A stretch of DNA of 57,328 nt, taken from contig JBBSYL010000036.1 in assembly GCA_038045265.1 (NCBI GenBank), positions 1-57,328 of the forward strand, in the 5' to 3' direction. Both the position numbers and the translations under genes were made by a program. This document shows positions 25,671 to 34,614 of the stretch, one piece after another; the stretch's first letter is position 1, and each line of letters opens with the position of its first letter. Under the pieces are notes generated by a model. The model made no database searches and was not told the origin of the DNA. It saw only the letters and a list, made by a program, of their open reading frames with translations. This DNA comes from Nanobdellota archaeon. Lineage in GTDB: Archaea > Nanobdellota > Nanobdellia > Pacearchaeales > GW2011-AR1.

Positions 25671-25797
25671 TGATCCCGCCAAGAGTTGAACTTGGGACCT
25701 CTGCCTGTCTGAAATCATCTGATTTCTGAGCACACTCAAAAACCAGAGGTTTTTGATGTTATCAGAGCAGCGCTCTAACCAACTGAGCTACGGGATC
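25671..25797 (-). tRNA. tRNA-Ile(GAU) with a ~53-nt intron at the canonical 37/38 position
   Basis: Minus-strand fold: acceptor GATCCCG/CGGGATC, D arm GCTC/GAGC, anticodon stem CTGCT/GGCAG, loop CTGATAA, T arm CCAAG-TTCAACT-CTTGG, discriminator A, no encoded CCA. The mature length is 74 nt. Confidence 0.8.
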
Positions 25798-27515: not shown

Positions 27516-27603
27516 GGCCTCGTAGCTCAGCCTGGCTAGAGCACTGGACTCTTAAAATCTTGTAGAAATCCAGGTGTCGCGGGTTCAAATCCCGTCGGGG
27601 CCA
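27516..27603 (+). tRNA. tRNA-Lys(CUU) with a 13-nt intron; integration target (attL) of the DGR island
   Basis: Acceptor GGCCTCG/CGGGGCC, D arm GCTC/GAGC, anticodon stem CTGGA/TCCAG, loop CTCTTAA, T arm GCGGG-TTCAAAT-CCCGT, discriminator A. Confidence 0.85.
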
Positions 27604-27605
27604 TT
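27589..27605 (+). repeat. attL core (tRNA-Lys 3' end)
   Basis: 17/17 identity with 34598-34614. Confidence 0.8.
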
Positions 27606-27651: not shown

Positions 27652-28818
27652 ATGAATGAAAAGATAGACATTCACTTTGAAGATGTGGGAAGAAGGAAAG
27701 AATCCATTAAAAAATGGAAAATGCCTTCAGAAGTAAAGAGAGATATGCTTCTTTTCCTTAATGATTTAGAATTAGGAAAGGTAAACAAGGGAAAGAAAAT
27801 AAATCCTAGAACTCAATTAAAATATATCAACACGTTAAAAGCTCCTCTTGAATACATAAACAAACCTCTTACTAAAATAACCCTTAAAGACTTAGAAGAG
27901 TTTGAAAAGGATTTATCTTCTGGTATATTGAAAAGCAAAAAGAAAAAGCCATATTCTCATGCCGTAAAGGCAGACATTAGAATTGCATTAAGAATACTAT
28001 TAAGATGGAAATTGGGGCTAGAAAAGGCAAATAAGCTTACTGATTGGTTTGATTGCAGAGATATTGACACAACACCAGACTATTTGAGTGAGAAAGAGAT
28101 AGAGAAGTTGTATAAGAGTTGTAAAAGCCTTAAAGAGAGATTTCTTATTGCTGTTCTATTTGACGCAGGTGTAAGAATTGAGGAATTTCTCAATATAAGA
28201 TACGAAGATGTTTCCTTACCTGTAAAAGAAGCTAATTTCGTTAAAATTACAATAAAGAATGAATATAGTAAGACATTAGGAAGAAATATATCTCTTTATT
28301 GGAAGCACTCATCAGAGGCAGTAAGAGACTTTATAGAACAAAGAGTTAGAGAAGGGATAAGAACAGACAATGCAGTCTATGAAGACACTTATTCTGCAAT
28401 TCGTTCATTCTTGAGAAGGTTTGGAATTAGAGTATTAAACAAGCCAGTGCATCCTCATTTATTTAGACATAGCTCTGCAACATATTATGCAAATAAACTC
28501 AATAGGCAAGAGCTATGCATGAGATATGGATGGAAGTTTAGCTCTGATATGCCTGACATCTATATTAGTAGAGCAGGAATGGAAAATAAAGAACTTGATG
28601 AGAAATTTACTCAAACTGAATTAGGAGATTTGAAATATAAACTTGAAAAGCAAGAACAACAAAATAATCTTATGAAAGAAAGACAAGAAAGACTTGAGGA
28701 AGAGTTGAATAGAAGAAGAAAATTTGACCCATTCTTAGACAAGCTAATGCAACAACAACCAGTAATACATCAAATAAAGAAGCTATTAGACAATGGAAAG
28801 AAATTAGTGATAGAATAA
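27652..28818 (+). CDS. int: tyrosine recombinase / integrase
   Basis: DAGVRIEEFLNIRYEDV (Arg I box), HPHLFRHSSATYYA (H-x-x-R) and DIYISRAG (candidate catalytic Tyr). It is intact and lies next to the att site. Confidence 0.9.
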   Translation: MNEKIDIHFEDVGRRKESIKKWKMPSEVKRDMLLFLNDLELGKVNKGKKINPRTQLKYINTLKAPLEYINKPLTKITLKDLEEFEKDLSSGILKSKKKKPYSHAVKADIRIALRILLRWKLGLEKANKLTDWFDCRDIDTTPDYLSEKEIEKLYKSCKSLKERFLIAVLFDAGVRIEEFLNIRYEDVSLPVKEANFVKITIKNEYSKTLGRNISLYWKHSSEAVRDFIEQRVREGIRTDNAVYEDTYSAIRSFLRRFGIRVLNKPVHPHLFRHSSATYYANKLNRQELCMRYGWKFSSDMPDIYISRAGMENKELDEKFTQTELGDLKYKLEKQEQQNNLMKERQERLEEELNRRRKFDPFLDKLMQQQPVIHQIKKLLDNGKKLVIE

Positions 28819-28844
28819 ACATAAAGTGGTGATTGGAGAACAAA

Positions 28845-29567
28845 ATGCCAATCAAACAAAAACAAAAGAAATCGAGCAACCGAAGCTCAATCCAGAGGAT
28901 GAGCTTTCGGGAAAGAATTGATTATGAAGAAGATAAAAAGAATAGATACTATAAAAGAACAGGAAAACAACAAAGAGTAAGAATAAATCTTGATTATGCC
29001 ATGGGATTTTTCAAAGCTAATGAATTAAATGTGCATGAAAAGGCATATTTGCTCAACAAAAAATATCAAATTATATATCGAACTGATTTAACAGGCAAGA
29101 AAAATTACTTCTTAGTGAAGCCGAGAGGAAATGAATCGGCAGAACATTTCCTTCTCGTAAAATTAATAGAAGAATATCTAAAACCTCATTTTAAAGTCTG
29201 GCTCTATCACTCTGTGAAGCCAGACGCGGAGATAAAATTCAAGAATAGAATGATTGCTATGGAAATTGAAACTGGAAAGCTTTTGAGGAACAATAAAAAA
29301 GAATTTCTTGAAAAAGTGGAGAGACTTAATGATAATTATGGGAAAGATTGGTTTTTCATTGTCACAAATAGAAATCTATTAAAGAAATATAGAAAATATG
29401 GTAAAACATACACAAGAAAGTCTGTATTGAAGAGATTAAATTATTACATAAATAATAAACCTAAAGAAAGTATAAGCATGAATTATGAAAACAAACCTAT
29501 AAAACGTGAAAATAAGCTTCCAGAAAGGAAAACTGGTGCTTATTGCTTTAATATTTGGGGAAAATAA
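28845..29567 (+). CDS. hypothetical basic protein of the island
   Basis: An ORF from the ATG at 28845, with a Lys/Arg-rich N-terminus. ..SAEHFLLV..KPDAEIKF..IAMEIETGK is loosely reminiscent of a PD-(D/E)xK nuclease core, but this is not secure. Confidence 0.45.
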   Translation: MPIKQKQKKSSNRSSIQRMSFRERIDYEEDKKNRYYKRTGKQQRVRINLDYAMGFFKANELNVHEKAYLLNKKYQIIYRTDLTGKKNYFLVKPRGNESAEHFLLVKLIEEYLKPHFKVWLYHSVKPDAEIKFKNRMIAMEIETGKLLRNNKKEFLEKVERLNDNYGKDWFFIVTNRNLLKKYRKYGKTYTRKSVLKRLNYYINNKPKESISMNYENKPIKRENKLPERKTGAYCFNIWGK

Positions 29568-29720
29568 GTATGCAAAAAACTAAGTTAGTATGTCAATTTT
29601 CACACAAAAAATCAACATACGAAATGCTCAATTTATTACACATAGATAAAAATCGTCTCCGACGATAGAATTTCCGATACGGTCAGCACAGGAATATAGA
29701 TATCTATTAAAATGTGTATT

Positions 29721-30768
29721 TTACACCTTTTCTAAAAGAGCATCAATTATCTTCATTTTAACTGCTTCCCTTAACTTATACGTCTTAGCCCATTTAGCAT
29801 AAGCCTGCCAACCTTGATAAACCTCCATTATAGATTCAAAACTCTTTTCGCCCTTTTTGTATAATTCTATTTTATTAATCATACTTCTTATATTTCTCTT
29901 TCTCAATAATCTACAATGGTAAAAATTCCTAAATCCAACAAAATCAATGCCTCTTTTTATTGGAATAATTCTTGACTTATTAGGATGTAATTCTATTTTT
30001 AACTTTTCTTTTAGAAAAGTATCTATTTTATCCTTCCATTCTTGAAGCTGTTTAGCAGACTTATGTAAAATTACAAAGTCATCAACATATCTTATGTAAT
30101 ACTTTGCTTTCAGGGTGTGCTTGACAAAATAATCCAGCTCATTCAAATATACATTAGCAAAGAATTGAGAGGTATAGTTGCCTAAAGGCATTCCTTTTGC
30201 TCGTTCGCCCCCCCCCCCCGAACGAGCTTACTGTATTATTCAATATTTGTCTGATAAGCCAAATCACGTCATTATCTTTAATCTTCTTACTTAGAATATT
30301 TATTAAAATTTCATGGTCAACGCTAGGAAAATAGTGTCTTACATCTGCCTTAAGGCAAAAACCACTTTCAGTATAAGGATTTGAAACTTTTCTTATAAAC
30401 CTATCAAATCTCTTAAGTGCAAACAATGTTCCTTTTTTTATTTGATTTGCACATGAATCATATATAAACTGCTTTTCAAAGAACTTCTTTATGACATTAA
30501 TTATAGCATGATGAACTACTCTATCTCTGAAATCAGATTTGCTTATCACTCTTGTTTTTGGGTCTCTCAAAACAAAGGTTTCCAAAGGCAAGGGCTTGTA
30601 TGTTTTATAAGTTAGTTCTCTATGCAGATTTAATAAATTAAGCTCTAAATTTTTCTCAAATTCCATAACGTCTTCATTTGAAGTTTTACCTTCTCTTGCT
30701 TTTCTCCAAGCAAGAGTTAAGTTTCCCATTGAAGATAGCCAATAATAAAGACCATTGTAAGTTTTCAT
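29721..30768 (-). CDS. DGR reverse transcriptase, reading frame interrupted by a G12 tract (one G fewer gives an intact 348-aa protein)
   Basis: The start MKTYNGLYYWLSSMGNLTLAWRKAREGK.., DPKTRVISKSDFRDRVVHHAI, the DGR-type motif 4 GMPLGNYTSQFFANVYL (xGxxxSQ), and YIRYVDDFVIL (YxDD). The two ORF-track pieces (30154-30873 and 29721-30191) join at the homopolymer. The total of 1048 nt equals 3n+1. Confidence 0.9.
30199..30227 (-). repeat. homopolymer G12 (sense strand; C12 on + at 30208-30219) flanked by a perfect 8-9 bp inverted repeat inside the RT gene
   Basis: The sense strand reads GCTCGTTC-G12-CGAACGAGC. This is the frameshift site of the RT. Confidence 0.9.
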
Positions 30769-30797
30769 ATTATAATTCCTAGTATGCACGTACTGGG

Positions 30798-30881
30798 CTA
30801 TTCGACCGTTCTCGTTAGAGTTAGCAAGATTGTCATTATTGGCATTCAAGTTGAGGTTACTATTGAGGTACAACCTCGAAA
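30798..30881 (-). repeat. DGR template repeat (TR), 84 bp
   Basis: It is homologous to 32150-32233 and 31269-31352. It has 28 A on the sense strand, mostly in AAY codons. It lies 29 nt upstream of the RT start and is not coding; the ORF-track TTG-start extension of the RT ORF covers it. Confidence 0.9.
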
Positions 30882-31242
30882 GGTATAGCCTTCTGCTTTA
30901 CGTACTCACATTCACATCTGTAAATTTCATCTCATTATTGCAGATGTAAATGCTCGTCACCACCACTTCATATTTCATTTTTCAATTACTTAATGTCGCA
31001 GTTGAATTTTATAATCTTCTCTTACGAGAAGACCCTAAGCACAAGGCGTGTAGCCCAGCCATGATTTGTGCATGACTAGGACTGTTAAAAGAAAATAATG
31101 CTTTTTATTTAATTAGATTATAGAATATGCAATAATCAAACAATATAGATAAAAAAATAGATTATATTATCAATTTGATTTTAAAGTTCGCATTTTATAA
31201 TTTTTCATTTTTAATTATTATGTACCAAAAAATTTGACGCAA

Positions 31243-31257
31243 AGTGGCTTCGGCACT
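31243..31257 (-). promoter_or_regulatory. GC-rich hairpin 11 nt downstream of VR2 (sense AGTGCCGAAGCCACT, one C-C mismatch)
   Basis: It is near-identical to the hairpin downstream of VR1 and absent downstream of the TR. Confidence 0.55.
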
Positions 31258-32001
31258 TTAGAAGAGAACTACCCGACCGTCCTCGACAGAGTAAGCAAGA
31301 CCGACATTATCGGCATACAAGTCGAGGCTACTACTGAGGCACAACCTCGAAAGTCCAAGATTATCTTCATTAGCTTCTCCCTGCGATGCAGTCCATAATG
31401 TTCTTGTTCCTTGTCCGAGCTTAGAAGGCAAACCAGTTTCTAATGAAACATCTTCATTTCTAAATACTCCTGTTGGTTTAGCAAGAATTGGAGAATGTCT
31501 TACTTGAGTATTTGGATTATAAACTAATCCTAAACCATAACTTCCTTTATCAAAATTCTTTAAACCATATTTGACAAGAACTGCTGGAAGCTTTTTAACA
31601 TCTCTTAATTGAGCAGGTAATTGTCCAAACATATCCATAGCCATTTCATGATGTCTTCCTGAAAAGTCTAATACAACTCCTAAATCAACATAATGATTTC
31701 CTCGTATTCCTATTGTATCTCCATCATTAAGAGTTCTTTGAATATCTTCTGGAAGTCCAACTCTTCTTTCTGGAACTAATGATTGAACTACTGGTAAAAC
31801 TAAAGAATTTGAACCTCTGACTGTAGGAACTTTATTAACTTCTGCTAAGTTTAAAACTTTAAGATTGGGATTATCAGCATAATCTCTTTTAACCAAGGCA
31901 TTAAAATCTTCTACAAATCTTGGAGCATTATCTCCTTGAAGAGTGTAAGGTATTACAAATGGCTGTTTTACTGCTGGCTTAAAATCATATTTATCTGTCA
32001 T
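31258..32001 (-). CDS. DGR target protein 2 (VR at extreme C-terminus)
   Basis: A paralog of the upstream gene. The C-terminus ..LSRLCLSSSLDLYADNVGLAYSVEDGRVVLF is encoded by VR2. It starts 2 nt after the stop of target 1. Confidence 0.85.
   Translation of the reverse strand: MTDKYDFKPAVKQPFVIPYTLQGDNAPRFVEDFNALVKRDYADNPNLKVLNLAEVNKVPTVRGSNSLVLPVVQSLVPERRVGLPEDIQRTLNDGDTIGIRGNHYVDLGVVLDFSGRHHEMAMDMFGQLPAQLRDVKKLPAVLVKYGLKNFDKGSYGLGLVYNPNTQVRHSPILAKPTGVFRNEDVSLETGLPSKLGQGTRTLWTASQGEANEDNLGLSRLCLSSSLDLYADNVGLAYSVEDGRVVLF
31269..31352 (-). repeat. DGR variable repeat VR2
   Basis: There are 15 differences from the TR over 84 bp, all at TR adenines on the sense strand. Confidence 0.9.
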
Positions 32002-32003
32002 AA

Positions 32004-32888
32004 TTATTTCCCTCTCCCTGTAGGCATATTAACCATAGATTGTGTAAACCATTTATCGAGTTCGCTTTTTCTTGCTTCTACTTGTTCTCTTAATTGAGCT
32101 TGATATTGTCTAATAAAATCGGCGCCAGTGGCTTCGCCACTAACCAAAACTACCCGACCGTCCTCGTTAGAGTTAGCAAGATTGTCATCATTGGCACTCA
32201 AGTTGAGGTCACTAACGAGGTACAACCCCGAAATTCCATTATCTCTTGCAAAAAATTGTCTTTTTCCATTTTTATCAAATTTAGGTAATCCTAATTCATC
32301 AACATCTGTAAACTGTTTTTCATTATTCTTTCCAGAAAGTCTTTCATCCTGTGCAACTGCAAAATCAGGTCTTGCTACAACCTTTAATCCATATCCTGCT
32401 CTGTCTTCTTCAGAAGGCACGACATCAAATCCTTGCACCATGAATGGATATTTTATACTTCCAGCCTTACTTTCTGCTAATTCAGTAACTTGTTTTAATA
32501 TTCCTCTATTCTGTTCTCTATTGTCTTTGTTACTTTGAACAACAAATGCAGGAGTATCAGAATAATGATTATCTTTAACCATAGAAAGAACTTGAGGGTT
32601 GCTTAAATCAGCCAATGTAACAACACGCATATTGAAAGGTCTTACCATATTATCCAAACGAGATGCTGAAAATGTATTTGAACCAGTCATATATGCAGGA
32701 TTATCTTTTCCAGCTTGAACCAGTGTGAGAACATTAAGGTATTGATTATCTCCAAATCTTTCTTTAATATCTCTTCTAAATGCTTCATACAATGCAGGAG
32801 CAAATTTATCTCCTTCTGCGAATGCTGTTAAAATAGTTGGCACTCTCCAATTAGGTTGCCCAAGATTTAGTTTACTTTCTTTAGCCAT
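32004..32888 (-). CDS. DGR target protein 1 (internal VR followed by ~47-aa tail)
   Basis: ..GISGLYLVSDLNLSANDDNLANSNEDGRVVLVSG.. is encoded by VR1. There is no signal peptide or TM helix. Confidence 0.85.
   Translation of the reverse strand: MAKESKLNLGQPNWRVPTILTAFAEGDKFAPALYEAFRRDIKERFGDNQYLNVLTLVQAGKDNPAYMTGSNTFSASRLDNMVRPFNMRVVTLADLSNPQVLSMVKDNHYSDTPAFVVQSNKDNREQNRGILKQVTELAESKAGSIKYPFMVQGFDVVPSEEDRAGYGLKVVARPDFAVAQDERLSGKNNEKQFTDVDELGLPKFDKNGKRQFFARDNGISGLYLVSDLNLSANDDNLANSNEDGRVVLVSGEATGADFIRQYQAQLREQVEARKSELDKWFTQSMVNMPTGRGK
32127..32141 (-). promoter_or_regulatory. GC-rich hairpin 8 nt downstream of VR1 (sense AGTGGC-GAA-GCCACT, 6-bp stem)
   Basis: A perfect inverted repeat just 3' of the IMH-like end of VR1. 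It lies within the coding sequence of target 1. Confidence 0.6.
32150..32233 (-). repeat. DGR variable repeat VR1
   Basis: There are 9 differences from the TR over 84 bp, all at TR adenines on the sense strand. Confidence 0.9.
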
Positions 32889-33282: not shown

Positions 33283-34503
33283 ATGATTAGCATGGTAGAA
33301 GAAGAAATAATAAAAGAAGTTATAACTTCACAGAGAGAATTATTGAATAAATCAGAAACTGGAACTCCGAGAGAGGCAGAAAAAGAGATTAGTATATTAG
33401 ATTCGTTTGCCCTAATAATAACTGGCGTGAGACGATGTGGCAAGAGTACATTTTTAAATCAGCTAATAAAAAAGCAGAAAAAAGCTTATTATCTTAATTT
33501 TGAAGACCCTCGACTAGAAGGATTTGAATTAGCAGATTTTAATAAAACTGAAATAATTTTTAAAAAGCTTTTTGGAGAAGGAGGAGTTTATTTTTTTGAT
33601 GAAATACAAAATATAGCTAAATGGGAAAAATTCATAAGGTACTTGGTTGATAAAAAGGAGAAAGTAGTTATAAGTGGCTCAAATGCCTCTATTTTGAGCA
33701 GAGAACTAGGGACAAAACTTACGGGAAGACATCTTAGAGCAGAAATGTTTCCTTTTTCCTTCAAGGAGTTTTTAGACTTAGAAAATGCCGAACCATCAAT
33801 AAATAGCTTTGATAAATATTGCCAGAAGGGAGGATTCCCAGAATATCTAAAGAAAGACAATCCAACGATATTAAATGAATTATTATCTGATATTGTAATG
33901 AAGGATATTGCAATAAGATTTGGAATAAAAAATACCAAAATATTAAATAAAATAGCAATCTTCCTCATAGGTAGCTCTGGAAAAGAGTTTTCTTATAATT
34001 CAATAAAGAATATGCTAAACATTAAATCTGTACAAAGTGTAATAAACTATATATCATTTTTTGAAGATGCCTATCTTATCTTTACTATTCCTCTCTTTAA
34101 CTATTCATACAAAAAACAGCAAGTAAATCCTAAAAAAGTTTACTCGATAGATACGGGCTTTTCTGTCTACAATACTCCCTCCTTTTCAGAAGATAAGGGG
34201 AGAATTCTAGAGAACGTTGTATTCCTTGCCTTGAGGAGAAAACATAAAGATATATTTTATTTTAAAGAAAAAAATGAATGTGACTTTTTAATAAAGGAAA
34301 GGGAAAAAATTATTCAAGCTATCCAAGTCTGCTATAATTTTAATAATGACAATAAGGAAAGAGAAATTAATGGGTTGATGGAAGCAATGAAGAAGTTTAA
34401 ATTGAAAGAAGGTTTAATTCTAACGTATAATCAAACTGATGAGTTTAATGTAGAAGGATATAAAATTAAAGCTATTCCTGTCTGGAAATGGCTTCTCTTA
34501 TGA
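33283..34503 (+). CDS. AAA-family ATPase (DUF4143-type archaeal ATPase)
   Basis: Walker A GVRRCGKST and Walker B VYFFDEIQ, with a C-terminal region like the DUF4143 family. The alternative start at 33292 fits the 30-nt TATA spacing better. Confidence 0.75.
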   Translation: MISMVEEEIIKEVITSQRELLNKSETGTPREAEKEISILDSFALIITGVRRCGKSTFLNQLIKKQKKAYYLNFEDPRLEGFELADFNKTEIIFKKLFGEGGVYFFDEIQNIAKWEKFIRYLVDKKEKVVISGSNASILSRELGTKLTGRHLRAEMFPFSFKEFLDLENAEPSINSFDKYCQKGGFPEYLKKDNPTILNELLSDIVMKDIAIRFGIKNTKILNKIAIFLIGSSGKEFSYNSIKNMLNIKSVQSVINYISFFEDAYLIFTIPLFNYSYKKQQVNPKKVYSIDTGFSVYNTPSFSEDKGRILENVVFLALRRKHKDIFYFKEKNECDFLIKEREKIIQAIQVCYNFNNDNKEREINGLMEAMKKFKLKEGLILTYNQTDEFNVEGYKIKAIPVWKWLLL

Positions 34504-34597: not shown

Positions 34598-34614
34598 ATC
34601 CCGTCGGGGCCATT
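34598..34614 (+). repeat. attR core (copy of tRNA-Lys 3' end)
   Basis: 17/17 identity with 27589-27605. Confidence 0.8.

Follow-up and report, generated by a model that had tools for sequence, protein, structure and literature searches.

An RT-16 RNA adjoining the template repeat of a DPANN-clade diversity-generating retroelement on a tRNA-integrated island

The retroelement and its island

The window (the whole stretch of DNA analysed, 57,328 nucleotides from a Nanobdellota archaeon) carries, on its minus strand between positions 29721 and 32888, two target genes, a template repeat (TR) and a reverse transcriptase (RT) gene, the components of a diversity-generating retroelement (DGR). The DGR rides a ~7-kb island integrated in a tRNA gene and bounded by a 17-nt att repeat. 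That is, the 3′ end of an intron-containing tRNA (27516-27603, plus strand; Rfam tRNA, 56.4 bits), whose anticodon CTT was assigned by eye to Lys and which ARAGORN wrongly labelled tRNA-Stop because of the intron, forms the attL site (27589-27605; ATCCCGTCGGGGCCATT), and an exact direct repeat of attL is found at 34598-34614 (attR, plus strand). The island also encodes, all on the plus strand, a tyrosine recombinase/integrase (27652-28818; Pfam Phage_integrase, 1.3e-12; phrog_1 integrase, 1.9e-19; NCBIfam XerA-like, 1e-20, under that model's cutoff), a 244-aa ORF (28833-29567) without a match in Pfam, NCBIfam, PHROGs or PADLOC, and an AAA_14/DUF4143 ATPase (33283-34503; Pfam; PADLOC PDLC04787, 3.6e-110) matching the PADLOC candidate defence gene PDC-S01. 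The att repeat at the tRNA, the size and the integrase bear out the tRNA-integrated island that an earlier, sequence-only reading of this DNA had proposed.

An independent repeat search returned a single 84-nt family with the TR (30798-30881) as reference and two further copies, VR2 (31269-31352, at 82%) and VR1 (32150-32233, at 89%), all on the minus strand, as that reading had listed them. Its placement of VR1 inside CDS 32004-32888 and of VR2 at the 3′ end of CDS 31258-32001 likewise agrees with the ORF positions. Base-by-base re-alignment on the minus strand reproduced its counts of 9 mismatches in VR1 and 15 in VR2, all 24 at the 28 A of the non-coding TR and none at the 56 non-A positions. 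Under a hypergeometric model such A restriction would arise by chance with a probability of 1.9e-5 (VR1) or 2.5e-9 (VR2), jointly ~5e-14, and TR/VR similarity ends a few bases beyond either 84-nt boundary. At TR positions 72, 80 and 81 the same A>G change is present in both VRs (GAGAACGGTCGAATAG vs GAGGACGGTCGGGTAG), and the change at 80/81, that is, GAAT in the TR (within its IMH*-like 3′ end, GAATAG) vs GGGT in the VRs, was seen again in the relatives inspected. Because this pair recurs, it looks like a fixed IMH*/IMH difference; all 24 mismatches are thus A-restricted as originally described, but those at 80/81 do not appear to be products of random mutagenesis. Furthermore, between VR1 and its ortholog at one related locus (L100), identity is 39% where the TR has A and 95% where it does not, against 88% for the sequence beyond the VR, a divergence that probably reflects DGR activity over evolutionary time.

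Target gene 1 (VP1, 294 aa; 32004-32888, minus strand) is one of a small family of proteins that have no Pfam assignment; the few with a named source are from Nanoarchaeota and Pacearchaeota. Target gene 2 (VP2, 247 aa; 31258-32001, minus strand) is a paralog of VP1 (25% protein identity, BLASTP E 1e-7). As modelled, VP1 may have a C-type-lectin-like fold with a C-terminal helix. Foldseek gave no significant match for the target fold (best E 0.27 in the PDB and 5e-3 in BFVD), the weak matches being enriched in C-type lectins and phage tail-collar fibres. The structure model of VP2 was poor. A GC hairpin with a GAA triloop lies 3′ of both VRs on the minus strand: AGTGGC-GAA-GCCACT (32127-32141) after VR1 is coding and gives a conserved SGEAT, and AAAGTGCC-GAA-GCCACTTT (31241-31259) after VR2 has one C.C mismatch and covers the VP2 stop codon plus the next 17 nt. 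GAA/GNA loops follow the VRs in relatives too.

The RT gene (29721-30768, minus strand) starts with an ATG at 30768, 29 nt after the TR end, the distance previously given. It is split by an extra G into ORFs 30154-30873 and 29721-30191, separated at a run of 12 G (30208-30219) at which the two frames found by tblastn also meet; with the run set to G11 the gene encodes an intact 348-aa protein (335 aa from M14) identical to public protein P0001. Among solved structures the best match is the Bordetella phage DGR RT (PDB 8ub7; E 2.4e-40, 142 bits); group II and retron-type RTs give E values of about 1e-19 to 1e-20 and no more than 76 bits. The RT also matches phrog_1423 at 3.8e-117. The DGR-type motif xGxxxSQ and the YVDD motif, both pointed out earlier, are present, LGNYTSQ and YVDD being invariant in 32 relatives.

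Named RT matches come from metagenome-assembled genomes of Nanoarchaeota, Woesearchaeota and Pacearchaeota, and the element is a member of a known, very large DPANN DGR clade; the occurrence of DGRs in DPANN-type archaea, which the sequence-only reading had mentioned, was described in 2015 (PMC4372165). The DGR layout, with A-only (A-biased) TR/VR mismatches and the TR just upstream of the RT, was found at 47 relatives' loci. Together with the A-only mismatches in the window, the Bordetella RT match, the hairpins and the VR1 comparison with L100, this upholds the claim of a complete DGR with TR, RT and two VR-bearing targets. A Pfam search found no avd at the window's DGR, and no Avd-like or other recurring small ORF stands beside the DGRs of 39 relatives; an Avd could still have escaped Pfam through sequence divergence, or lie at another genomic locus. 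Many relatives likewise have two targets in tandem, several loci having two VRs. The two targets and missing avd were therefore correctly recognized, but these features, then called unusual, are typical of the clade.

A structured RNA upstream of the template repeat

The gap between VR2 and the TR is occupied by an RT-16 RNA (Rfam RF03019; 30880-31080, minus strand; 84.7 bits, E 7e-12, where the gathering score is 50), a structured 5′ leader adjoining the TR that the sequence-only reading had overlooked. RT-16 was matched in 68 of 83 relatives' loci, and at most 5 nt separate its 3′ end from the TR start in 49 of the 52 loci with a TR call. In nine relatives RT-16 and the TR form a unit antisense to the RT; eight of these keep the abutment, and the ninth (L045) has a 62-nt gap. 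Upstream of the RNA, 66 loci share a promoter-like signal (A-rich, then TTTWWAA) that is position-specific at -36 to -23, and in the window a putative archaeal BRE/TATA box (AATTAAATAAAAAGC; 31100-31114, minus strand) lies about 20-34 nt 5′ of the RT-16 start. The discrete structured RNA so delimited, with a TATA-like signal ahead of RT-16, has the TR as its 3′ part.

The first ~30 nt of this RNA (CCTAGTCATGCACAAATCATGGCTGGGCTA; 31051-31080, minus strand) pair over a long range with ~23 nt (TAGCCCAGTACGTGCATACTAGG; 30778-30800, minus strand) that open with the final 3 nt of the TR and take in most of the 29-nt TR-RT spacer. This closing stem is present in both the MFE and centroid folds (-93.5 kcal/mol, z -6.5), and its 5′ strand terminates at the invariant A (31051) of a CYACAYG motif. 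Across 41 loci, 86.8% of cells were paired vs 69.7% in shuffled controls (0/500 shuffles; kinship ignored), 94 double-sided changes were counted vs 31.8 in shuffles (not tree-corrected), and sliding the registers gave 19-48% pairing. The pair adjoining the invariant A:U is U:A in 25 loci, C:G in 16 and unpaired in none. Moreover, cognate strands form duplexes of -30.3 kcal/mol vs -22.2 for non-cognate ones (p 3e-16), and among the opposite-strand loci folded the stem was predicted in 7 of 8, followed by an oligo-T tract in 5 of the 7. In the Rfam RT-16 consensus the first 30 nt are shown folded locally, as hairpin P1. Since the four strands of the local hairpin and the closing stem are all complementary to one another, the RNA may switch between local (P1) and long-range pairing.

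The closing stem sets the invariant A beside the TR 3′ end, in a retron-like topology. If priming occurred here, the inner closing stem would be the template:primer duplex, the invariant A of CYA/CACG (31051), next to the TR 3′ end, would be the likely priming nucleotide, and reverse transcription would stop at the terminal helix of RT-16, which immediately precedes the TR. The 5′ RNA domain would then do what Avd and the 3′ spacer (Sp) do in BPP-1. This priming model is tentative, with somewhat less than an even chance, and by the same analogy RT-16 may be a replacement for Avd.

The G run inside the RT gene

The G run sits in a hairpin, GCTCGTTC-G12-CGAACGAGC (30199-30227, minus strand), which falls between motifs 3 and 4 of the RT. 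RTs that are 66-70% identical have counterparts (GTTGTTCG-G13-CGAACGAC, GTCGTTCG-G10-CGAACGAC and one with G4AG8), so that across the hairpins a run of 9-13 G forms the loop of a conserved 8-9-bp stem, with poly-C instead in one relative. The run is coded by GGG codons only, in a genome of 33% GC; this codon use, the location in the loop of a conserved stem and the poly-C substitute argue for selection at the nucleic-acid level.

A near-identical public contig (GCA_964361045.1) has G11 and an intact RT, whereas the window has G12 and is out of frame. The two contigs are separate genotypes with 5 synonymous differences; VR1 and VR2 are unchanged among the G11 assembly, the G12 assembly and the sole Logan contig covering them. 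Exactly G12 was also found in contigs assembled from runs ERR3858113 and SRR32696702. The RT is therefore homopolymer-interrupted in the window, as the sequence-only reading had it, but the frameshift is allele-specific. In a frame-blind DNA pattern scan, all 5 RT-context matches (metagenomic relatives) were out of frame at the run, with both RT halves still 52-70% identical to the query; relatives in frame have G13 (L083), G10 (L084) or G9 (L054 and L055). The run suggests phase variation or slippage, in which case a change in its length, or slippage within it, would switch or throttle RT production, and hence mutagenesis. Such a G-tract switch is possible but not the favoured side of the balance.

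Interpretation and alternatives

We consider it very probable that the locus is a DPANN-clade DGR whose TR leader is RT-16. Its assignment as a DGR follows from the A-only mismatches, the Bordetella-like RT, the GAA hairpins, the GGGT/GAAT pair and the ortholog VR divergence at TR-A. As judged from what is established for the DGR of Bordetella phage BPP-1, the TR RNA would be reverse-transcribed with misincorporation opposite A, and the cDNA would replace VR1 and VR2, rewriting ~9 AAY-type codons on the C-terminal face of two paralogous proteins.

The repeats could instead have arisen by duplication or gene conversion among paralogs, with a pseudogene fragment and without retrohoming, and VP1 and VP2 are indeed paralogous. 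Beyond the 84 nt, however, the proteins are just 25% identical, and the same pattern stands beside homologous RTs in about 50 loci; with 24 of 24 mismatches at A of the non-coding copy (joint chance ~5e-14), this explanation is effectively refuted. RT-16 might also be a cis-regulatory 5′ UTR (riboswitch or attenuator) of the RT gene without a template-RNA role, given that it lies upstream of the RT and on its strand in the window and most relatives, and that the 3′ strand of the closing stem stops ~10 nt ahead of the RT start codon and could hide a ribosome-binding site. Yet this is very unlikely, as nine relatives have the unit antisense to the RT, all but L045 (gap 62 nt) with the TR abutment, the opposite-strand units keep the stem in 7 of 8 folded and an oligo-T end in 5 of those, and the stem pairs, with covariation, with the TR 3′ boundary itself.

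The remaining alternatives concern the frameshift. A decaying relic, its RT permanently dead and its VRs frozen, would account for the frameshifted RT, for VRs identical among all available assemblies of the strain and for the C.C mismatch in the VR2 hairpin. Against such decay, no further lesion is seen: the RT halves are fully conserved, a one-G change gives 348 aa, the TR, RT-16, closing stem and VR1 hairpin are intact, and an intact RT allele coexists in public data, which makes a relic unlikely. A homopolymer miscall, with an RT that is always intact and a G run devoid of regulatory meaning, deserves more weight, though it too is on the unlikely side. Short-read assemblies are prone to errors at runs of 9-13 G, which are generally difficult to sequence and assemble with such reads; the near-identical GCA_964361045.1 carries G11 with an intact RT, and L083, L084, L054 and L055 are in frame. 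On the other hand, G12 is repeated exactly in the ERR3858113 and SRR32696702 contigs, G11 and G12 belong to genotypes distinguished by 5 synonymous differences, all five pattern-scan relatives are out of frame with RT halves 52-70% identical to the query, and the GGG-only coding at 33% GC, conserved-stem loop and poly-C of one relative argue for selection on the nucleic acid.

Comparison with known systems

DGRs of Nanoarchaeota/DPANN were reportedly also treated by Paul et al. in 2017 (Nat Microbiol). The window shares with these elements the target(s)-TR-RT order, IMH GGGT vs IMH* GAAT, the RT clade and a GRA-triloop GC hairpin within the target gene; nothing fundamental differs, the window copy being on an integrase-bearing tRNA island. 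The 2015 description of Nanoarchaeota DGRs, with an IMH/IMH* motif and a GRA-loop hairpin, marked small ORFs between target and TR as possible Avd (Paul et al., Nat Commun, PMC4372165). The literature searched held no description of RT-16 as the target-TR region, of the long-range closing stem or of the RT poly-G hairpin. When RT-16 (RF03019) was published, as an orphan 'near RT genes', the one such motif linked to a DGR was RT-10, which flanks the TR on its opposite side (Weinberg et al. 2017, PMC5737381). The RT-16 model, matched over its full length in the window, lacks the 3′ partner of the first helix, and the orphan family is now placed as the TR leader of DPANN DGRs.

In the BPP-1 ribonucleoprotein there is a TR118-129:Sp47-56 duplex with priming A56, and a duplex of TR-flanking sequences (bioRxiv 10.1101/2023.10.23.563531). 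Like BPP-1 (mtd-VR, avd, TR, Sp, brt), the window has A-specific TR-to-VR flow, a homologous RT, IMH/IMH*, a post-VR hairpin, a TR 3′ end duplexed with a candidate primer strand ending in adenosine, and pairing across the TR. Unlike BPP-1, it has no Avd, a GAA loop rather than a GRNA tetraloop, two targets and a cellular archaeal host; the structured RNA of BPP-1 is the 3′ spacer (Rfam RT-10), whereas that of the window is RT-16, 5′ of the TR, and therefore the candidate primer strand precedes the template.

Both the window and retrons have an ncRNA followed by the RT, paired ncRNA ends and a similarly placed purine, a resemblance that is topological only. In retrons (msr-msd) the ncRNA ends are paired by flanking a1/a2 inverted repeats, with a conserved 5′-strand purine beside the template 3′ end; the window differs in having a DGR-type RT and a template with genomic target copies that show A-specific differences. 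Finally, as in the poly-G/C contingency loci of Neisseria, Campylobacter and Helicobacter, a long intra-ORF G run is 1 nt longer in one of two near-identical genotypes, which shifts the frame, but here an archaeon is the host, the affected gene encodes a mutagenic RT and not a surface or restriction-modification function, and the run makes up a conserved hairpin's loop.

The retroelement, its targets and its island

A repeat search of the window grouped three 84-nt minus-strand copies (30798-30881, 31269-31352 and 32150-32233) into one family, with homology of the three copies lost within a few bases beyond either end. The copy at 30798-30881, the template repeat (TR), is non-coding and lies 29 nt upstream of the ATG (30768) of the reverse transcriptase (RT) gene. 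The variable repeat VR1 (32150-32233) lies within CDS 32004-32888, which encodes the target protein VP1 (294 aa), 146 nt ahead of the VP1 stop, and VR2 (31269-31352) is found near the end of CDS 31258-32001, which encodes VP2 (247 aa), 11 nt ahead of the VP2 stop codon. The repeat coordinates and ORF map of the sequence-only reading were thus reproduced. On the minus strand the TR contains 28 A residues, and base-by-base comparison gave 9 mismatches for VR1 and 15 for VR2. All 24 fell at TR adenines, and none of the 56 non-A positions was altered in either VR, so that the A-restricted divergence reported from the sequence alone held on realignment (hypergeometric chance of the restriction 1.9e-5 for VR1 and 2.5e-9 for VR2).

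Removal of one G from a homopolymer run in the RT gene yields a 348-aa RT, whose class was placed by similarity scores and motifs. In a sequence search of the PDB its closest solved relative was the Bordetella phage DGR RT (8ub7; near full-length alignment, E 2.4e-40, 142 bits), compared with at most 76 bits for retron-type and group II intron RTs. That is, the DGR-type RT that had been proposed together with xGxxxSQ and YVDD motifs was recovered: motif 4 (LGNYTSQ, of the form xGxxxSQ) and the catalytic YVDD (YxDD) are present and are invariant in 32 relatives. The best PHROG match was a phage RT family (3.8e-117). A retron class was not indicated, the RT being nearest to a DGR RT and the NCBIfam retron and group II models scoring far below their cutoffs; NCBIfam has no DGR-specific RT model, and its group II match was not used for classification. 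The locus is therefore a DGR, as it had been interpreted.

The TR ends in GGTCGAATAG and both VRs in GGTCGGGTAG, the last two differences being common to VR1 and VR2. The resulting pair, GAAT in the TR versus GGGT in the VRs, is the difference between IMH* and IMH (the motifs at the 3′ ends of TR and VR, respectively); it is seen again in relatives, and is exactly the one published for nanoarchaeal DGRs, which have IMH TGGGGT, IMH* TGGAAT and GRA-triloop hairpins within the target gene (Paul et al. 2015, PMC4372165). Hairpins also follow both VRs of the window: AGTGGC-GAA-GCCACT lies 8 nt past VR1, and the imperfect AAAGTGCC-GAA-GCCACTTT, with one C.C mismatch, 9 nt past VR2. Hairpins with GNA loops are present in most relatives. 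The VR1 hairpin is coding, its encoded peptide SGEAT being conserved in the protein family. The hairpin of VR2, by its position across the stop codon of VP2, is mostly 3′ non-coding, so that it is the nucleic acid that is constrained.

A VP1 ortholog from another sample (L100, 87% nucleotide identity) was compared with VR1: identity was 39% at TR-A positions, 95% at TR non-A positions and 88% outside the VR. The focusing of divergence at TR adenines indicates that the element has diversified its target in recent evolution. Among assemblies of the present strain, VR1 and VR2 are unchanged in the G11 and G12 genotypes (named for the length of the run in the RT gene) alike.

The two target proteins are paralogs of each other (25% identity, E 1e-7) and belong to a small family of 27 database proteins without a Pfam domain, the few with a named source being from Nanoarchaeota and Pacearchaeota. 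No obvious signal peptide was seen in either protein, and sequence searches of the PDB with both gave no match. The AlphaFold model of VP2 was poor (pLDDT 52). The VP1 model was confident (pLDDT 86.7) but had no significant Foldseek match in PDB or BFVD; among its weak PDB matches approximately 30 of the top 50 were C-type lectin domains, including Mtd, and the weak top BFVD matches were phage tail-collar fibres and C-type lectins. For display of the variable residues, a fold resembling that of C-type lectins is plausible.

The DGR resides on a tRNA-integrated genomic island, in agreement with the sequence-only reading. A 17-nt sequence (ATCCCGTCGGGGCCATT) located at 27589-27605, at the 3′ end of an intron-containing tRNA gene, is repeated exactly at 34598-34614, and the 7.0 kb between the repeats carry a tyrosine integrase gene 48 nt past the tRNA, a 244-aa ORF (28833-29567, plus strand, between the integrase and the RT 3′ end), the DGR, and an AAA_14/DUF4143 ATPase gene (33283-34503, plus strand). 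Archaeal housekeeping genes, for CDC48, topoisomerase I and a TFIIS-type zinc ribbon, flank the repeats on the outside. No Pfam, NCBIfam, PHROGs or PADLOC match was obtained for the 244-aa ORF, VP1 or VP2. The ATPase, whose gene has a divergent orientation relative to the DGR targets, matches the PADLOC candidate defence gene PDC-S01 (3.6e-110) and may be functionally tied to the DGR. A provirus was rejected, as capsid and terminase genes are absent and the island measures just 7 kb. Intron-bearing tRNA genes were found at 25671-25797 (minus strand, 127 nt) and 27516-27603 (plus strand, 88 nt); ARAGORN misses the former and labels the latter, whose anticodon by eye is CTT (Lys), 'tRNA-Stop (tta)'.

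Relatives of the RT number in the thousands, with 7,989 of the 8,000 candidates that were scored at E<=1e-10. The top matches are 60-73% identical and, where named, come from Nanoarchaeota or Woesearchaeota. A scan using one genome per species gave at least 582 relatives, of which the best 80 are almost all from DPANN MAGs. In 47 loci including the window, self-comparison placed a TR shortly ahead of the RT, and its mismatches to at least one VR were A-biased; in additional loci the TR is on the strand opposite the RT. Two targets occur in tandem in six relatives' loci (L002, L013, L019, L022, L025 and L056) and farther apart in two (L030 and L067). Tandem targets are therefore a family trait: the pair that had been described is present, but is not the unusual feature it was taken for. 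The element is an addition to a well-populated DPANN DGR family known since 2015, and the DGR itself is ordinary for specialists.

Some of the MAGs bearing this DPANN-type RT/RT-16 cassette are labelled 'bacterium' or 'uncultured Methanosarcinales' (loci L016, L039, L044, L047, L051, L055, L062, L076 and L081). Possible reasons are mis-binning, co-binning of host and symbiont, or horizontal transfer. In the relative encoding P0004 (L082:13-650), a HepT/MNT toxin-antitoxin pair adjoins a two-target DGR, and modules of the MazE, PIN and HicAB types are found repeatedly close to other relatives. Such neighbours are consistent with these DGRs residing in mobile or variable regions.

RT-16 RNA and the stem around the template repeat

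The gap between VR2 and the TR is filled by the Rfam RNA RT-16 (RF03019; 30880-31080, minus strand), which matched over model positions 1-158 of 158 (84.7 bits versus a gathering score of 50, E 7e-12), and whose 3′ end shares two bases with the start of the TR. This RNA comes from a set of 19 orphan motifs described as 'near RT genes' (Weinberg et al. 2017, PMC5737381); a link between RT-16 and DGRs was not found in the literature searched. Among the relatives, RT-16 was detected in 68 of the 83 loci scanned, several misses being contigs that end just upstream of the RT. RT-16 and an A-biased TR share a strand in 52 loci, and in 49 of these the TR starts at most 5 nt from the RT-16 3′ end. In nine of these 52 loci the RT-16-TR unit lies opposite the RT strand, and RT-16 still directly abuts the TR in eight of the nine. 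RT-16 thus accompanies the TR and not the RT gene.

In 66 loci the RT-16 5′ end is preceded by a position-specific A-rich block (-36 to -32) followed by a TTTWWAA block (-30 to -23). These stand where an archaeal BRE/TATA box would be expected, which makes 31080, or a position close to it, the probable start of the RNA; a sigma-70 promoter scan was uninformative, the host being an archaeon. Approximately 55 nt past the RT stop codon, a hairpin ATCGTC-GGA-GACGAT (29652-29666, minus strand) followed by TTTTATCTAT is a plausible end of an RT-16-TR-RT transcript. The RT-11 RNA is weakly similar to RT-16 (26 bits), the common blocks being CUACACGC, AUAAAAU and GAAG..GGUG, which suggests that RT-11 is a related leader in another DGR clade.

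Complementarity exists between the first approximately 30 nt of RT-16 and the approximately 20 nt past the TR (CCCAGTACGTGCATACTAGG). Folding of a 326-nt RNA (31080-30755) gave a bipartite stem in both the MFE and centroid structures (-93.5 kcal/mol, z -6.5), in which the first part pairs CCUAGU.CAUGCAC with GUGCAUACUAGG and the second pairs GCUGGGCUA with UAGCCCAGU, the latter drawing on the CUA of the conserved GGCUACACGCC and on the last three TR bases, UAG. This predicted closing stem (31051-31080 with 30778-30800, minus strand) is absent from the Rfam model and brings an invariant A beside the TR 3′ end. It covaries in 41 loci, which were anchored, ungapped, solely on the motifs CYACAYG and GAATRG. 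Across these loci, the ten inner pairs were formed in 86.8% of cells, versus 69.7% in column shuffles (0 of 500 reached the observed value), and double-sided changes numbered 94 versus 31.8 expected, as counts uncorrected for phylogeny; slid registers were 19-48% paired. Beside the invariant A:U, 25 loci have a U:A pair and the other 16 a C:G pair, and no locus is unpaired at this position. Binding of 5′ to 3′ segments was stronger for cognate (-30.3 kcal/mol) than for non-cognate (-22.2 kcal/mol) combinations (p 3e-16), and the outer helix was present, with differing sequences, in all 15 loci inspected by eye.

It is possible that the true structure of the first RT-16 helix is instead the local 5′ hairpin, P1, as the Rfam model draws it. 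P1, however, leaves unexplained the pairing of the CY of CYACAYG with the 3′ boundary of the TR. Mutual complementarity of all four strands would also allow the RNA to switch between its local and long-range pairings. The long-range closing stem was likewise predicted in seven of the eight opposite-strand units folded, with an oligo-T tract directly after it in five of the seven; on these predictions, the opposite-strand units look like self-contained ncRNAs of approximately 300 nt.

The accessory protein Avd is typical of many DGRs and is not universal. In the 387-nt VR2-TR gap the longest coding-strand ORF is 26 aa, none reaching 42 aa, and this maximum rules out the small gap ORFs as Avd. 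A Pfam search of the island proteins revealed no Avd domain. A set of 140 ATG-ORFs (75-175 aa) was collected from within 2.5 kb of the cassette in 39 relatives; Avd was absent among the recurrent Pfam families of this set, the commonest of which was MazE with five members, and all-against-all BLASTP found no recurring small-protein family, the largest cluster containing two members. The lack of avd was therefore borne out, but not as an oddity of this cassette: judged by these searches, the absence appears clade-wide, at least for anything recognisable or syntenic.

A poly-G hairpin within the RT gene

A run of exactly 12 G (30208-30219) breaks the RT gene (29721-30768, minus strand) into two ORFs; this run is the homopolymer interruption seen earlier and by far the longest G/C run in the 33% GC window. 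The run forms the loop of a hairpin with a perfect stem, GCTCGTTC-G12-CGAACGAGC (30199-30227, minus strand). A public contig of 57,326 nt (GCA_964361045.1, CAYHYW010000004.1) encodes an intact RT (P0001). A comparison spanning 21 kb showed the contig to be identical to the window except for the loss of one G (G11) and five transitions, at 33429, 33432, 33441, 33465 and 33474. All five are synonymous third-codon changes in the ATPase gene within 46 nt, and the cluster looks like a small patch of recombination or strain variation on the island. The frame is thus toggled by a difference in G-run length between near-identical genomes.

Systematic miscalling of long G runs is a possible explanation for the out-of-frame copies. 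G12 was found repeatedly, in Logan contigs of ERR3858113 and SRR32696702 that are 100% identical to the window, and the five synonymous differences show the window and the G11 contig to be distinct natural genotypes. The hairpin is also kept in RTs that are only 66-70% identical, as GTTGTTCG-G13-CGAACGAC, GTCGTTCG-G10-CGAACGAC or with a G4AG8 loop, and some more distant relatives have G9 or G7. An RT-internal hairpin with a G loop of 9-13 nt occurs, among other relatives' loci, in L082-L084, and in-frame copies exist. A frame-blind scan of metagenome contigs yielded five hairpin copies in RT genes (L088, G10; L089, L090 and L099, G11; L094, G9). All five were frameshifted exactly at the run, with both RT halves 52-70% identical to the query. 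At a further locus (L098:66-86), the loop of the RT hairpin reads as poly-C in the RT sense direction, so that conservation applies to a stem bearing a homopolymer loop and not to a Gly-rich peptide. The reversed loop hints at loop inversion through template switching at the inverted repeat.

Taken as a pattern across these gene sequences, the frameshifts fit a contingency locus or programmed slippage that would keep most RT copies off. A DGR RT with a phase-variable homopolymer was not found in the literature searched, nor was the poly-G hairpin found in a scan of viral contigs. Two related contigs from soil (L087:2374-2394 and L093:1242-1261) likewise contain the hairpin GTCGTTCG-G9/10-CGAACGAC, in a GC-richer context and with no RT motif nearby; these occurrences may be due to chance.

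A proposed priming model and comparison with known systems

The interest of the locus over its membership in a published family is moderate, and comes from three features of the clade that were not found described: RT-16 as the leader of the TR, a covarying closing stem that makes the template RNA retron-like and apparently Avd-free, and the conserved frame-toggling poly-G hairpin. Together with about 80 relatives, the locus gives the orphan RNA RT-16 a function and a genomic partner. If true, the G-run hairpin would be the first suggestion, in the literature searched, that DGR activity itself is phase-variable.

In the inner closing helix, the IMH*-proximal end of the TR would be paired with a strand ending in the invariant adenosine 31051. 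The 3′ helix of RT-16, ending 8 nt ahead of the TR 5′ end, is a candidate stop, and RT-16 and the closing stem together could hold the template for priming in cis without a helper protein. Given the BPP-1-like geometry of the stem and the lack of Avd, we infer that such Avd-free cis-priming would be the simplest model. A broader joint reading is a tentative one and, in our judgement, rather unlikely to hold as a whole: the DPANN DGR clade would run on a self-closing retron-like template RNA in which the 5′ RT-16 domain takes the place of Avd as well as of the 3′ spacer and provides the adenosine for priming. Mutagenic cDNA synthesis would then need nothing but RT and RNA, and the RT would be gated by a hypermutable poly-G hairpin in its gene (through phase variation or programmed slippage) such that only a minority of cells diversify their targets. 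The locus suggests that a minimal two-component DGR (RT and self-closing RNA, no Avd) exists in nature. Such a DGR would bear on the evolution of DGR priming relative to retrons and be relevant to engineers of compact targeted-mutagenesis tools.

In the RT-Avd complex of the Bordetella phage BPP-1, TR 118-129 forms a duplex with spacer 47-56, spacer A56 primes beside template G117, and a second duplex links the sequences upstream and downstream of the TR (bioRxiv 10.1101/2023.10.23.563531). The BPP-1 duplex has the same geometry as the predicted inner helix of the window, except that in the window the primer-like strand is 5′ of the template. In retrons, too, the primer-like strand is 5′ of the template; the likeness to retrons, however, is one of ncRNA topology alone, the RT of the window being of the DGR type.
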